Shown here: in pieces, positions 1 to 5,980 of the stretch | Layout of the letters: every line of letters begins with the position of its first letter | How positions within the stretch are numbered: the first letter of the stretch is position 1 | Source: a virus | Length of the DNA stretch: 5,980 nt | IMG/VR virus record: IMGVR_UViG_3300045988_005058 | Strand: one strand, 5' to 3' | The notes under the pieces: generated by a model | Told to the model about the DNA's origin: nothing | The model's input: the letters and a program-made list of their open reading frames with translations, nothing else | The model's database searches: none | Made by a program: the position numbers and the translations under genes

Positions 1-1415
1 ACATGTTCGGCGAAAACGACACCAACTACTGGGCAGAAAAAACCGAATATTCCACACCGAAAACCAAAATTGAAGGAAAGGGCATCGGTAACGGAACAAT
101 CGGGGATTACTTCGGAATCCCAACAAATGTACCGCTGGAAGTAAACGCGCTACCGGCACGCGCCTACGCGATGATTTATAATGAGTGGTTCAGAGATGAA
201 AACCTTGAAGCACCAATAATGATAGGATACAAGAAAACTGACGACGGAGGTATATCAGCAGAACCAGAAGCAGACGAAGCAAAATACGCCAATAAACCAG
301 AATTTACTGCAACCGCATCAGAAGGTGCACTATACGCAACGAAACCCGCCAAAGCGGGCAAATTTCACGACTACTTCACCAGCTGTTTGCCAAGCCCGTT
401 AAAAAATGACCCTGTGGAAATCAGCATGACAGGCAATGCACCGGTAGCATTCTTTAGTGGCACCGACCTGACCGAAATCTGTAATTTAAACAAAGATATC
501 TACATGGACGGAACAGGAACTGCAGCGCCGAAAATAAGACAATGGCCACGGGCAGATGGCGGCGCAACGGTACTAGTCGACGGCGCAACGGTATCAGGAG
601 GAACGACAAACAATCACGCTTACCTGGGCGCAGACTTAAGTAACGTAAGTGCAATTAGCATTCAGGACTTAAGAATGGCAATAGCCTTGCAACACATTTT
701 TGAAGCAGATGCACGAAACGGCACGCGATACCGTGAGTTCCTGTCTGGTACATGGGGCGTAACGAGTCCGGACAGCCGTATGCAGATTCCTGAATACATC
801 GGTGGACAGCGCATTGCAATCAATGTAAATCAGGTTGTGCAGACGAGCCAGACGGACCCGACAACCGGACAGGCACTAGGCAATACGGCAGCATACAGCC
901 TGACCACGTGCAGCAAGCAGATGGTGGACTATGCAGCGACCGAATACGGCTACATCATCGGACTGGCAGTAGTACGAGTGGAACACAGCTACCAACAAGG
1001 GCTAGCAACCAAGTGGACACGTGGCGGGCGGTTCACGTACTATGACCCGCGACTAGCAGCTTTAGGCGAACAACCGGTATATAACCGTGAAATCTATGCA
1101 CAGGGCACGGCAGAAGATAACCAAATCTTTGGGTATCAGGAATGCTGGGCGGACTACCGCTACAAGCCTTCCTACGTAACCGGAGAAATGCGATCTAACT
1201 ATAAGACCAGTTTGGATGCATGGCACTATGCGGACGATTACGAAAAGCTTCCGCGTCTCTCGGCGGAGTGGATTCAAGAAGGACAACAGAACATTGACCG
1301 AACGATTTCAGTAACAAGCGAAAGAAGCCACCAGTTCTTGTGTGACTTCTACTTCAGCGAAGACTGGTATCGTGAAATGCCTATTTACAGCATTCCCGGC
1401 ATCGAGAGAATCTAA
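1..1415 (+). CDS. VP1: Major capsid protein VP1 (F-like), C-terminal about 471 codons; the 5' part lies at 5628-5902 of the same circle
   Basis: Frame 3 is open from the window edge to TAA 1413-1415. The translation MFGENDTNYW... continues the motif FFFVPCR-LLWEHWENMFGEN seen at 5859-5920, which is the conserved FFVPxRxxWxxWxxFxGE region of microvirus capsids as I recall it. The total of about 560 aa is typical of gokushovirus-type VP1. Confidence 0.9.
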   Translation, partial: MFGENDTNYWAEKTEYSTPKTKIEGKGIGNGTIGDYFGIPTNVPLEVNALPARAYAMIYNEWFRDENLEAPIMIGYKKTDDGGISAEPEADEAKYANKPEFTATASEGALYATKPAKAGKFHDYFTSCLPSPLKNDPVEISMTGNAPVAFFSGTDLTEICNLNKDIYMDGTGTAAPKIRQWPRADGGATVLVDGATVSGGTTNNHAYLGADLSNVSAISIQDLRMAIALQHIFEADARNGTRYREFLSGTWGVTSPDSRMQIPEYIGGQRIAINVNQVVQTSQTDPTTGQALGNTAAYSLTTCSKQMVDYAATEYGYIIGLAVVRVEHSYQQGLATKWTRGGRFTYYDPRLAALGEQPVYNREIYAQGTAEDNQIFGYQECWADYRYKPSYVTGEMRSNYKTSLDAWHYADDYEKLPRLSAEWIQEGQQNIDRTISVTSERSHQFLCDFYFSEDWYREMPIYSIPGIERI

Positions 1416-3842: not shown

Positions 3843-4040
3843 ATGACACACACCTACGAACTTAGAAGTTGGAACGACGACGGCAGCATGACAACAGTAC
3901 TTAAACTTACAGCAGAACCCAAATATGCAAAAGAAAGAGCAAAGGACTACGCGAACCGGCACCCGGGTCTCTACTCATTAGAAAAAGTAGAAAAGGTAGC
4001 AATGTACCTTACAGAAAAGGAGATTGACGAAAATGCTTAA
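3843..4040 (+). CDS. Hypothetical 65-aa soluble protein, first gene after the promoter
   Basis: ATG 3843 lies 8 nt after AAGGAAGG; the track start at 3834 is a GTG inside the SD. No motif recognised and no hydrophobic segment. Its end overlaps the next gene (ATGCTTAA). Confidence 0.6.
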   Translation: MTHTYELRSWNDDGSMTTVLKLTAEPKYAKERAKDYANRHPGLYSLEKVEKVAMYLTEKEIDENA

Positions 4041-4052
4041 ATGCTATATAAT
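4024..4052 (+). promoter_or_regulatory. Second near-consensus sigma70-like promoter motif overlapping the peptidase start
   Basis: TTGACG (4024-4029), a 17-nt spacer, TATAAT (4047-4052). It is inside coding sequence, so chance is possible. Confidence 0.3.
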
Positions 4053-4425
4053 GGACACAGACGGAAACGTAAAGCTTGGAAGACACTTCAAAGTAAAAGA
4101 ATTTAGCTGCCGTGACGGCAGTCAAGTGGTATTCATAGACGACTACTTATATTCCGTTCTGGACATCCTCCGACATAAACTAGGAAAGCCGGTAATCATA
4201 ACCAGCGGATACAGAACACCAGAATGGAACGCAAAATGCGGTGGAGCAAAATACAGCTATCACATGCGCGGTATGGCAGCAGATATCCGGGTAAATGGAA
4301 TAAGCGCAAAAGAGCTTGCCAACAAACTGGATGAAATCGTACCGGATGGATGCGGCATTATCGTATACAAAAACTGGGTGCACTTTGATGTGCGAACCGG
4401 GAAAAAATACAGAAAGGGGATGTAA
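4033..4425 (+). CDS. Zinc D,D- or L,D-peptidase of the M15 (Peptidase_M15_3 / VanY-like) family, putative peptidoglycan hydrolase
   Basis: HxxxxxxD zinc motif in SYHMRGMAADI (H 4261-4263, D 4282-4284), second His in WVHFDV (H 4381-4383), and the upstream FKVKEFSCRDG element typical of this family. Start ATG 4033 overlaps the previous stop; ATG 4051 is an in-frame alternative. The track start 4024 is a TTG abutting the SD. Confidence 0.8.
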   Translation: MLKCYIMDTDGNVKLGRHFKVKEFSCRDGSQVVFIDDYLYSVLDILRHKLGKPVIITSGYRTPEWNAKCGGAKYSYHMRGMAADIRVNGISAKELANKLDEIVPDGCGIIVYKNWVHFDVRTGKKYRKGM

Positions 4426-4491: not shown

Positions 4492-4713
4492 ATGACAAAA
4501 GCAACATGGAATGCAAGAGACACTCCCACAGAAGCACTAGAAGAACTACTCGAAAGAAAATACAAAGAAATTAATAGCAACTACAAAATGCTTAAAAAAG
4601 TGACAAAAATAGAAGATGCTAAAAAGCTAGTAGATGAAATATGGCAAATGAAAAGCTTTGCAAACAGCATTGAAGTAGAGCTAATGAGAAGGGAGTATAA
4701 CAGTGGCACATAG
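4492..4713 (+). CDS. Hypothetical 73-aa helical protein
   Basis: ATG 4492 lies 7 nt after AAGGA (4480-4484). The sequence is charged and looks coiled-coil-like. No motif recognised. Confidence 0.6.
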   Translation: MTKATWNARDTPTEALEELLERKYKEINSNYKMLKKVTKIEDAKKLVDEIWQMKSFANSIEVELMRREYNSGT

Positions 4714-4819
4714 AAGCGGAGCGGGTCGAGGCGACCAGAAGAGATTTACCCAGACTGCAAAGCGGGTAAAAAACATCAACGTTCGACCGAAAGTATCACG
4801 AGGCGGAATCAGATTATAA
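4703..4819 (+). CDS. 38-aa highly basic DNA-binding/packaging protein (phiX J-like, SpV4 ORF8-like)
   Basis: Below the ORF-track size cutoff. GTG 4703 lies 7 nt after GGGAG (4691-4695) and overlaps the stop of the previous ORF. Translation: MAHRSGAGRGDQKRFTQTAKRVKNINVRPKVSRGGIRL, with 11 K/R and 1 acidic residue. Its length and C-terminal ...RGGIRL resemble the SpV4 ORF8 tail ...PRGGRRF, recalled from memory. Confidence 0.65.
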   Translation: MAHRSGAGRGDQKRFTQTAKRVKNINVRPKVSRGGIRL

Positions 4820-4848: not shown

Positions 4849-4965
4849 ATGGCATTAATCAATGTAAAGGACGTTAAGGAAGCAATTGCGCTGATGATGA
4901 ACATCCTTGAAAAGCTCGACGAAATCTACCACGCACTGAAGGATGCAAACAAAGACAAAGAGTAA
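4849..4965 (+). CDS. Hypothetical 38-aa protein
   Basis: Very strong SD AAGGAGGTG (4836-4844) lies 4 nt before ATG 4849. Translation: MALINVKDVKEAIALMMNILEKLDEIYHALKDANKDKE. No motif recognised. Confidence 0.5.
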   Translation: MALINVKDVKEAIALMMNILEKLDEIYHALKDANKDKE

Positions 4966-4976
4966 AGGGGAAAAAC

Positions 4977-5225
4977 ATGAAACTTAAATTCTACTCATTC
5001 CACGATGCATTGACCAACGGCTACTCACAGCCATTTCTGCAGAACAACAGGGCACAGGCAGTGCGAACGGCACGCTGGAAAGCCAACGAAAGCAAGCCAA
5101 GTGAAGTCGAAGATATTTCGCTCGTAGAACTGGGCGAATTCGACACCGAAACAGGCTACATGAGCGAAGCAATGCCTGAACACATCGCACGGCTCATCGA
5201 CCTGAAGGAGACGGCCAAATGCTAA
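4977..5225 (+). CDS. Small nonstructural protein, VP5-like (phiX C analogue in gokushoviruses)
   Basis: ATG 4977 lies 6 nt after AAAGGGG. The pattern MKxxFYSxxD...PF...N...A.R........ps...D..L.ELGEFDTETG matches my recollection of the conserved small microvirus protein usually labelled VP5. Not verified. Confidence 0.45.
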   Translation: MKLKFYSFHDALTNGYSQPFLQNNRAQAVRTARWKANESKPSEVEDISLVELGEFDTETGYMSEAMPEHIARLIDLKETAKC

Positions 5226-5644
5226 ATCCTAATACACTGGTAAGGTACTACGGTCTACCGACCGAAAGAGTGACAAACAATCCGGGCAGCAAAACCGCAC
5301 CAACGTGGAAAGCAGTAAAGCGACCGAACGGCACTACCGACTACATCCAGCAGCCGGACGAAGACACATACGAAAAAATCCAGCGAGCCGGCGAGGGCTA
5401 CGATCTTGCAAGCGCAATCGCACGGCTGGAAGCGGGAGACACCAGCATCAAGGCAAAAAGCATGGTATATACCGAGGGCACCGACCTTGAAAATCTGCCC
5501 AAGGACATCATGACGATGCACGAAAAGGCCAAAGATGCAGCCGAAACGCTGGAACAGCTGAAACAGATGCAGCAGACCGAACAGCCGAAGCCGAAAGAGG
5601 AAGAAAAAAAAGAGGAGGTGAAAGAAAACGAACCGAAACAGTGA
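5219..5644 (+). CDS. VP3: Putative internal scaffolding protein, VP3-like
   Basis: ATG 5219 lies 8 nt after AAGGAG and overlaps the VP5-like stop. 141 aa, sited immediately upstream of VP1. The central segment DTYEKIQ...DLASAIARLEAGDTS...Y...TDLENLP resembles gokushovirus VP3 as I recall it. It has an acidic/lysine-rich tail. Confidence 0.5.
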   Translation: MLNPNTLVRYYGLPTERVTNNPGSKTAPTWKAVKRPNGTTDYIQQPDEDTYEKIQRAGEGYDLASAIARLEAGDTSIKAKSMVYTEGTDLENLPKDIMTMHEKAKDAAETLEQLKQMQQTEQPKPKEEEKKEEVKENEPKQ

Positions 5645-5980
5645 AAACCATTTCGCGCAAGTGCCGCGAATGGAACGACCGCGAAGCAAATTTGACAGAA
5701 GTCACCAGCTGTTGACGACCATCAACGAAGGTGACCTCGTACCCATCTACTGTGATGAAGTGTTACCGGGCGATACCGCAAAAATACGACTAAACGGACT
5801 TGTCCGAATGAGCACTCCCATCTATCCTATCATGGATAACTGCTACATGGATATCTATTTCTTCTTTGTTCCATGCCGTCTGCTGTGGGAACACTGGGAG
5901 AACATGTTCGGCGAAAACGACACCAACTACTGGGCAGAAAAAACCGAATATTCCACACCGAAAACCAAAATTGAAGGAAA
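5628..5980 (+). CDS. VP1: Major capsid protein VP1, N-terminal part (non-canonical start; frame disrupted at 5880)
   Basis: Frame 3 reads (ACG)NRNSENHFAQVPRMERPRSKFDRSHQLLTTINEGDLVPIYCDEVLPGDTAKIRL...MDNCYMDIYFFFVPCR up to 5879. This is the hallmark VP1 N-terminus (HxFAQVP, RSxFDRSH, EVLPGDT, FFFVPxR). The conserved continuation LLWEHWENMFGEN is in the +1 frame from 5881. The first canonical in-frame starts are GTG 5661 and ATG 5670. Confidence 0.8.
5903..5980 (+). repeat. Terminal redundancy (copy of 1-79), marking circular closure
   Basis: 78 nt are identical to 1-79 except for one A-run: A5 at 5939-5943 versus A6 at 37-42. Confidence 0.95.

Follow-up and report, generated by a model that had tools for sequence, protein, structure and literature searches.

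Where does synthesis of a phage's most abundant virion protein begin when ACG stands at the position of the expected initiator codon? The question is raised by the gene for the major capsid protein VP1 in IMG/VR virus record IMGVR_UViG_3300045988_005058, a stretch of 5,980 nucleotides (nt) that was analysed as a whole and is called the window here. The window contains a complete gokushovirus genome, which is circular and 5901 nt long and is written with an exact terminal redundancy of 79 nt (positions 1-79 are identical to 5902-5980). Behind an in-frame TGA at 5619-5621, the VP1 frame reads AAG AAA ACG AAC CGA AAC AGT GAA AAC CAT TTC GCG CAA, and none of these 13 codons is ATG, GTG, TTG, CTG or ATH; GTG 5661, CCG, CGA and ATG 5670 follow, exactly as described in the initial annotation. 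Four options had been left there, namely genuine initiation at ACG 5628, a T-to-C error in an original ATG, initiation at GTG 5641 combined with an A missing from the run at 5644-5647, and a truncated protein starting at GTG 5661 or ATG 5670. Our analysis supports the first of them, on the grounds of homology to an ATG, the states of the codon among relatives, the constraint on codons 2-14 and a conserved Shine-Dalgarno (SD) sequence. The feature is real, conserved and biologically meaningful, and ACG 5628 probably serves as the functional start codon of VP1.

Codon 1 of VP1 and the Shine-Dalgarno sequence preceding it

IMG/VR contributed relatives as 78 loci and as 98 whole contigs; a further 55 contigs came from ENA and other metagenomes and one from a metagenome-assembled genome (MAG). 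The pooled set was de-duplicated on a 280-nt region, which left 100 unique sequences. A single large dataset (3300045988) accounts for most of the IMG/VR contigs, whereas those from GenBank and ENA are of independent origin. At the position of ACG 5628 (5628-5630, plus strand, codon 1 in the following), 86 of the 100 unique relatives carry ACG and nine ATA, while GTG and ATG occur in only two each and GCG in a single one. The lack of a canonical start codon extends to the four closest GenBank genomes, which come from human gut in China, Ireland and France (KX513876, KX513864, MT121961 and KT264784); three of these have ACG, and KX513864 has ATA. Between the stop codon and codon 7, ATG, GTG, TTG, CTG, ATT and ATC are all absent from 96 of the 100 sequences, and 25 of them do not offer any ATG, GTG or TTG between the in-frame stop and codon 15.

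A neighbour-joining tree calculated from VP1 from alignment column 26 onward resolves a monophyletic clade of 61 genomes, within which the window is nested (ACG 54, ATA 3, GTG 2, ATG 1, GCG 1), and a sister clade of 21 genomes that all have ATG at codon 1. The ancestral ATG was thus replaced by ACG once, in the common ancestor of a large clade from the human gut. ATA has at least two separate origins, and ACG has been kept, or exchanged for ATA, GTG or ATG, across VP1 protein identities down to about 74% in tblastn matches. The upstream in-frame stop codon at 5619-5621 (plus strand) is likewise a lasting element, as TGA or TAA is found there in 60 of the 61 clade members and the only member lacking it (L150) starts with GTG. 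Ribosomes can therefore not enter the VP1 frame from further upstream, for example by way of slippage on the A8 run at 5604-5611.

The initial annotation had pointed to a resemblance to the N-terminus of gokushovirus VP1 from Chlamydia phage, and this homology is borne out by closer relatives. The VP1 genes of MG945135, MG945373, MG945591 and Dulem virus 202 (PP511406) begin with ATG AAC CGN AAC AGY GAR, encoding MNRNSE, and the ATG of outgroup and sister-clade VP1 (MNRNSE.HF.QVP) aligns exactly with ACG 5628, so that the proposed correspondence of this codon with the homologous Met is confirmed as well. An SD sequence also precedes the ATG of those ATG-starting relatives, and in MG945591 the VP1 start is overlapped by the same VP3 end (EPKQ*) as in the window genome. 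The alignment with VP1 of phiEC6098 (PDB 8DES) begins at residue 2 of the query.

Codon 1 is under a second coding constraint, as the last 17 nt of the gene for the VP3-like scaffolding protein overlap VP1 codons 1-6, with the VP1 frame lying at +1 relative to VP3. VP3 coding permits eight codons at 5628-5630, i.e., [A/G][C/T][G/A]. Nevertheless, 99 of the 100 unique genomes use a codon with at most one mismatch to AUG, the sole exception being GCG, and ACA, GCA and GTA were found in none of the 100, even though A at 5630 is compatible with VP3 in all ATA lineages. T at the second position is associated with A at the third (Fisher P = 4e-10, with phylogeny ignored). Judged by these patterns, codon 1 behaves like a start codon. 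The change from ACG to ATG is synonymous in VP3 (AAC to AAT), and VP3 therefore does not force the C. Position 5629 itself changed four times on the tree, which is within the range of two to eleven changes seen at ordinary C/T synonymous sites and therefore provides no statistical proof of selection against ATG.

The SD sequence AGGAGGTGA occupies positions 5613-5621 on the plus strand, inside the VP3 coding sequence (Glu-Val-Lys), and has a conserved core, GAGGTGA, at 5615-5621. Its first eight nucleotides, AGGAGGTG at 5613-5620, constitute the strongest SD-like site on the plus strand (duplex energy with a generic anti-SD, -16.3 kcal/mol). While the strength assigned to this site in the initial annotation proved correct, the spacing of 9 nt did not: the spacer in front of A5628 measures 7 nt when counted from G5620 and 6 nt when counted from A5621, the last base of the extended form, GGAGGTGA. 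GAGGTGA with a 6-nt spacer to codon 1 is present in 92 of the 100 unique relatives. The two VP3 third-codon positions inside the core, 5617 and 5620, underwent one and three parsimony changes, respectively, versus four to 14 at neighbouring third positions. The SD sequence in front of ACG is thus under selection even at sites that are synonymous in VP3. We also looked for weaker SD sequences in genomes that had reverted to ATG or GTG; the cases were too few, and they followed no consistent pattern.

Selection on VP1 codons 2-14

If ACG 5628 initiates VP1, the segment between it and the first canonical start codons must be translated in the VP1 frame. This segment, VP1 codons 2-14 (NRNSENHFAQVPR, 5631-5669, plus strand), was analysed by counting substitutions with Fitch parsimony on the 61-genome clade, and the counts rest on the neighbour-joining tree. 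Codons 2-14 experienced 74 codon changes, of which only five altered the amino acid (codon 7, which is variable, accounts for four of them and codon 14 for the fifth). The synonymous fraction of 93% compares with 21% expected from random mutation (binomial P = 3e-40), and the ratio is the same as in the undisputed part of VP1 at codons 16-40, where 262 codon changes led to 16 amino-acid changes. In the overlap-free codons 7-14, the VP1 frame shows 51 codon changes and five amino-acid changes, while the corresponding values for the other two frames are 40 and 36 and 40 and 39. Within the overlap with VP3, the VP1 frame sustained 14 changes that are all synonymous (CGA, CGG, AGA), whereas the 15 changes in the VP3 frame are all non-synonymous (P/Q, K/E).

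The constraint sets in abruptly. VP1-frame codons -2 and -1 are unconstrained, with 18 amino-acid changes among 23 codon changes (K/R/S/T/A/V), and codons 2-6 also changed 23 times without a single amino-acid replacement. Codons 2-14 are thus clearly translated in the VP1 frame, with the constraint beginning right after ACG. This sharp boundary places the N-terminus of the protein at codon 1 and excludes a start exclusively at 5661 or 5670. The Pfam profile Phage_F (PF02305) matches VP1 over its full length (profile positions 1-500 of 501, 491 bits, E = 4.3e-147), and the match starts at the codon at 5655, upstream of both GTG 5661 and ATG 5670.

Structural relatives of VP1 in the PDB are 9CGM (SpV4) and 8DES (phiEC6098) (PMC11281519). 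[quoted passage not shown] The strong selection on codons 2-14 agrees with such a role of gokushovirus VP1 N-termini in the capsid interior. In its Phage_F domain, its N-terminal motif (M)NRNSE.HF.QVP and the SD sequence before its start, the window protein resembles canonical gokushovirus VP1 (PP511406, MG945373, MG945591, the IMG/VR sister clade and 8DES), which differ from it by an ATG start and by Ala instead of Met at codon 15. Only in its start does it depart from an ordinary gokushovirus VP1.

The third reading frame contains GTG 5641, which overlaps the VP3 stop codon as GTGA and opens an open reading frame (ORF) of 24 codons (MKTISRKCREWNDREANLTEVTSC, 5641-5715). Substitutions in this frame within codons 7-14 of VP1 (5646-5669) are nearly all non-synonymous, and hence the ORF is not a conserved gene. 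GTG 5641 could be a decoy reinitiation site.

Routes to VP1

We propose that the strong and conserved GAGGTGA, 6 nt upstream, holds the 30S subunit at ACG 5628, where the initiator fMet-tRNA (anticodon CAU) would pair with the codon despite one mismatch at the middle base. VP1 would then begin with (f)Met-Asn-Arg-Asn-Ser-Glu, just as in the relatives that bear ATG. Ribosomes finishing VP3 would probably feed the ACG by translational coupling and thereby raise the local ribosome supply; such coupling is probable because the VP3 stop codon, TGA at 5642-5644, is located only 14 nt downstream of ACG 5628, an arrangement that is shared by the ATG-starting MG945591. The yield from ACG would presumably suffice, and some VP1 of shorter length may be made in addition from the invariant ATG at codon 15. 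In Escherichia coli, ACG does initiate translation, and the N-terminal Met has been confirmed by mass spectrometry (bioRxiv 10.1101/063800).

The closest parallels are the AUU and AUA starts of bacterial genes such as infC and pcnB of E. coli (AUU) and several genes of Staphylococcus aureus. The conserved S. aureus starts (infC AUA, ccpN AUA, cvfC1 AUU) all have extended SD sequences and reach 10-30% of AUG (PMC13009471). As in these genes, a near-cognate codon occupies the AUG position of orthologues in VP1, is conserved and is preceded by a strong, extended SD sequence at normal spacing, and the ATA sub-lineages of the clade fit the S. aureus AUA/AUU class directly (PMC13009471). Two differences stand out. 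First, the VP1 codon is mostly ACG, which carries a middle-base mismatch and was the weakest of eight codons in E. coli CAT reporters (PMC3643588); it falls outside the documented bacterial near-cognate set of AUU, AUA, AUC and CUG, and only nine of the 100 relatives have ATA. Second, the known cases are low-abundance regulators for which weak initiation is purposeful, whereas VP1 is the most abundant virion protein. The VP1 start works like the class that combines a near-cognate codon with an extended SD sequence and is new in its codon and in its occurrence in a structural gene of high abundance. With regard to coupling, it resembles M13 genes V and VII (Yoo and RajBhandary 2008, PMC2268962) in that the downstream start lies close to the upstream stop. 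In contrast to the characterized cases, which reinitiate at AUG or GUG, the VP1 start would be ACG, and its dependence on VP3 translation is putative.

A number of points weigh against initiation at ACG as the main route. In E. coli CAT reporters, ACG yielded about 0.7-1% of AUG (48/7314 and 78/7838 CAT units), while AUA reached about 3-4% (PMC3643588). This poor efficiency poses the chief problem for a major capsid protein, since a yield near 1% seems too low for a product of such abundance in the virion unless the host, the sequence context or coupling helps. ATG is one VP3-synonymous transition away and yet has not swept, which means that ACG must either be good enough or persist through selection for weak initiation. 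One genome has GCG, with two mismatches to AUG, and the series of T, I, V, M and A at codon 1 is also plausible as a set of sense-codon substitutions. The case for ACG is built on comparative sequence evidence. Furthermore, the invariant ATG at codon 15, which arose on the same branch on which ATG was lost from codon 1, could be the main start. Finally, one contig (L018, IMGVR_UViG_3300045988_030479, 1480-1510) has ATG at codon 1 that is disconnected from VP1 by a 5-nt deletion (CGAAA) in codons 3-4: the frame ATG-AAC-CAG-TGA terminates, the VP3 stop is lost and VP1 could start only downstream. If this phage is viable, a downstream start suffices; the contig is a singleton, and the genome may be defective or wrongly assembled or may provide a natural test of the downstream start. 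For the low yield of ACG, three possibilities can be named: ACG is efficient owing to its context, to coupling or to the host; selection favours a weak start; or most VP1 is produced from another site.

The last of these possibilities directs attention to the downstream codons. GTG at 5661-5663 (plus strand, codon 12, Val) is an ordinary sense codon, since 47 clade members have GTG and 14 have GTA, with nine independent changes. ATG at 5670-5672 (plus strand, codon 15) is a possible second start; it is invariant in all 61 clade members, lies 25 nt behind the VP3 stop and is not preceded by an SD sequence. In the sister clade and in outgroups, codon 15 specifies Ala (in HAE or RAE), and the gain of Met15 therefore coincides with the loss of ATG at codon 1. 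The clade accordingly possesses two conserved in-frame candidate starts, one at codon 1 (ACG or ATA) and the other at codon 15 (ATG). For the truncated protein considered in the initial annotation, this means that GTG 5661 drops out on account of the GTA in 14 of 61 genomes and that ATG 5670 does not qualify as the only N-terminus in view of the purifying selection upstream; as an additional start it may be used.

Most VP1 might consequently be made from ATG 5670 by reinitiation after the VP3 stop, with ACG or ATA giving rise to a minor but essential isoform that is 14 residues longer. This possibility overlaps with our preferred reading in that ACG still initiates and departs from it with regard to the main start. 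Two isoforms would explain at once why weak codons persist at codon 1, why Met15 is invariant and why the N-terminal arm is under selection, and both the low yield of ACG in E. coli (PMC3643588) and the deletion in L018, which leaves only downstream starts, are in line with it. On the other hand, no SD sequence precedes ATG 5670, the gain of Met15 is a single phylogenetic event (a correlation with n = 1), and Met15 could be merely a structural residue. Selection is as strong on codons 2-14 as on codons 16-40, which is easier to understand if most molecules carry codons 2-14, and two isoforms are not known to be required by a T=1 capsid, which is built from 60 identical subunits. All in all, we regard a division of labour between the two starts as rather unlikely.

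In its most elaborate form, a deliberate two-start capsid gene would have evolved, in which an SD-held and VP3-fed ACG or ATA yields a minor, armed VP1 and AUG15 the arm-less bulk. The parallel would be VP2 and VP3 of adeno-associated virus (AAV), where the capsid gene of a single-stranded DNA virus likewise has an upstream in-frame ACG (VP2), an invariant downstream AUG (VP3) and an N-terminal extension directed to the interior. AAV relies on eukaryotic leaky scanning, a process absent from bacteria, and the two VP1 isoforms are hypothetical here, such that the comparison is one of analogy only. Though doubtful, the idea would have considerable consequences: a T=1 phage capsid would contain isoforms in a fixed ratio, as a bacterial-virus counterpart of the AAV VP2/VP3 strategy, and the gene would be the first from a bacterial system in which an ACG start codon is natural and selected.

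A programmed +1 frameshift from VP3 into VP1 between 5622 and 5633, resulting in a VP3-VP1 fusion in which ACG is read as Thr, is very improbable. The two frames do overlap with an offset of +1, an SD-like element is situated upstream of the putative shift site as in prfB, and T, I, V, M and A at codon 1 would be acceptable as sense substitutions in a fusion protein. However, the permitted window of 12 nt offers no codon capable of re-pairing in the +1 frame and has no stop or rare codon for the A site, and its sequence varies among relatives (AAG GAA AAC, AAG CAG AAC, AGC GAA GAT and others). Unlike prfB, the site thus has neither a slippery codon nor an A-site stop, and the spacing of the SD sequence is wrong, since 6 nt to ACG (and 21 nt to the VP3 stop) suits initiation, compared with 3 nt in prfB. 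Relatives with the same VP3-VP1 overlap, such as MG945591, have a plain ATG at the shift position, and no scaffold-capsid fusion is known in Microviridae.

Even less credible is the proposition that VP1 starts only at ATG 5670 or GTG 5661 and that the conservation upstream reflects a non-coding RNA or DNA element or a relic. GenBank annotators selected the equivalents of precisely these codons, and a 6-bp hairpin, TTCGCG/CGCGAA, can be drawn at 5652-5670. The strict periodicity of 3 nt in the VP1 frame only (51/5 versus 40/36 and 40/39, as given above) argues against such an element, and the hairpin is disrupted by synonymous variants (GCA, CCA, AGA) for which there is no compensating change. 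The RNA fold does not reach significance (z = -1.1), Rfam returned no match except a chance hit to U4 (E = 0.25), and GTG 5661 is often GTA. In addition, the homologous segment of EC6098 VP1 (8DES) is a translated N-terminus.

That the ACG is a sequencing or assembly artefact (T to C at 5629, or a missing A at 5644-5647) or is edited from C to U after transcription has a negligible chance of being correct, even though a single base change would restore a canonical gene. Editing of ACG to AUG occurs in plant organelles; to our knowledge, C-to-U editing of mRNA is not established in bacteria, and it could not rescue the ATA lineages. The T-to-C error envisaged in the initial annotation is refuted by the 86 genomes with ACG among 100 unique relatives, which derive from many independent assemblies (GenBank entries from China, Ireland and France, IMG/VR and ENA gut metagenomes). 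The start at GTG 5641 with a missing A fails in the same comparison: the A-run is replaced by AGC, TCA, TCG or GAC with the frame unchanged, none of the relatives contains A5, and relatives that start at the equivalent of 5670 and show no conservation upstream were not encountered among them.

Three further mechanisms were considered and rejected. Slippage on the A-run in combination with GTG 5641 would act on a run that is not conserved, and re-pairing at -1 would work only if AAA were to read GAA. Slippage during transcription of the A8 run at 5604-5611 would not deliver ribosomes into VP1, as the VP1-frame stop at 5619-5621 lies downstream of it. Recoding of TGA as Trp is at variance with the annotated genes, which end with TAA (five), TGA (two) and TAG (one); moreover, the VP1 frame upstream contains a further stop and no start, and TAA replaces TGA 5619 in some relatives.

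Initiation at ACG 5628 remains the reading that we prefer. A conserved and selected ACG start is essentially undocumented in bacteria or their viruses, and our literature search for a natural conserved ACG start in bacteria, phages or Microviridae found no relevant report. Its presence on the structural gene with the highest expression in an abundant clade of human-gut phages would challenge assumptions about start-codon strength and would indicate either that the host or the context allows ACG to work well or that weak initiation is selected. The clade also amounts to a natural experiment in which ACG, ATG, ATA and GTG interconvert under dual-frame constraint.

Annotation, genome organization and further elements

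The GenBank entries KX513876, KX513864 and MT121961 start VP1 at GTG (codon 12) or ATG (codon 15), and the deposited proteins lack the conserved N-terminal 11-14 residues. Gene callers likewise shorten VP1 throughout this clade, and its N-terminus is therefore systematically mis-annotated. Capsid N-termini in databases, as well as structure predictions and phylogenies derived from them, would be wrong by 11-14 residues for at least 100 genomes, and the peptidase search described below suggests that many more than these 100 are affected.

Because the genome is circular, VP1 runs off the end of the window. In the circular reconstruction, its coding sequence comprises a first part at 5628-5980 and, after the 79-nt redundancy, a continuation at 80-1415 (both plus strand), with TAA at 1413-1415 as the stop codon and 562 codons when counted from ACG. 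The VP3-like internal scaffolding gene extends from 5219 to 5644 (plus strand; stop codon TGA 5642-5644). Its match to Pfam Chlamy_scaf is weak (E = 1.6e-4, below the gathering score), and the homologue in Dulem virus 202 carries the annotation 'internal scaffolding protein'. Pfam profiles furthermore identify a replication protein (REP_ORF2-G2P), an ORF5 protein (Phage_ORF5) and an M15 peptidase. The gokushovirus context of VP1 is thus evident from the circular genome, the size of which lies within the expected range of about 4.5-6 kb, from the matches for replication, ORF5 and scaffolding proteins and from the nearest GenBank records, which belong to Gokushovirinae.

Elsewhere in the genome, start codons are mostly ATG with an SD sequence (VP3, VP5, the M15 peptidase and an ORF of 38 amino acids), the exception being VP2, which has no evident SD sequence. 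To judge from this pattern, the host evidently uses SD-dependent initiation. One complete genome of the clade (CAVKUS010000079.1, 5739 nt), with an ACG start, was binned in the MAG 'Bacteroides sp. CAG:545'. The contig is entirely phage and hence does not provide evidence for integration or for the host. The clear SD usage of the phage would be unusual for a host from the Bacteroidota.

The M15 peptidase gene at 4033-4422 has more than 1000 homologues at E <= 1e-10, a number that suggests great abundance of the phage group. Of these homologues, the best 120 listed reside mostly on contigs of up to about 6 kb (two are longer, 8.1 and 11.2 kb) and mostly in Logan/ENA assemblies, and the only taxon-bearing name among them is 'Microvirus sp.'. 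The common homologue length of 130 amino acids supports a start of the peptidase at ATG 4033 rather than at TTG 4024.

Two unannotated ORFs of 38 amino acids each follow further downstream. The first, at 4703-4819, has a GTG start and encodes a very basic product (MAHRSGAGRGDQKRFTQTAKRVKNINVRPKVSRGGIRL) that looks like a DNA-binding protein of the VP8/J type. The second, at 4849-4965, starts with ATG behind the second-strongest SD sequence of the genome (AAAGGAGGTG).

Hairpins that resemble terminators flank VP2. One of them, a GC hairpin consisting of AGCCCCGC-AAAA-GCGGGGCT and followed by ATTTTT, lies at 1426-1450 between the VP1 stop (1415) and the VP2 ATG (1454), and the other, also a GC hairpin (AAGGGGGGTG...CATCCCCCTT, followed by TTTT), is found at 2333-2362 directly after the VP2 stop. 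The intergenic region of about 320 nt between VP2 and the replication gene contains, at 2404-2568, six exact plus-strand copies of TTTCAACA together with degenerate copies such as ATTCAACA and TTTCAAAA. By chance, 0.3 exact copies are expected, and none of 200 shuffled sequences reached six. The array is iteron-like and may be a regulatory or origin element. A perfect inverted repeat of 11 bp, ACCGGCACAAG/CTTGTGCCGGT, at 2621-2655 spans GTG 2648, the listed start of the replication gene, whose real start may be the ATG at about 2664 (MPCTKP...).

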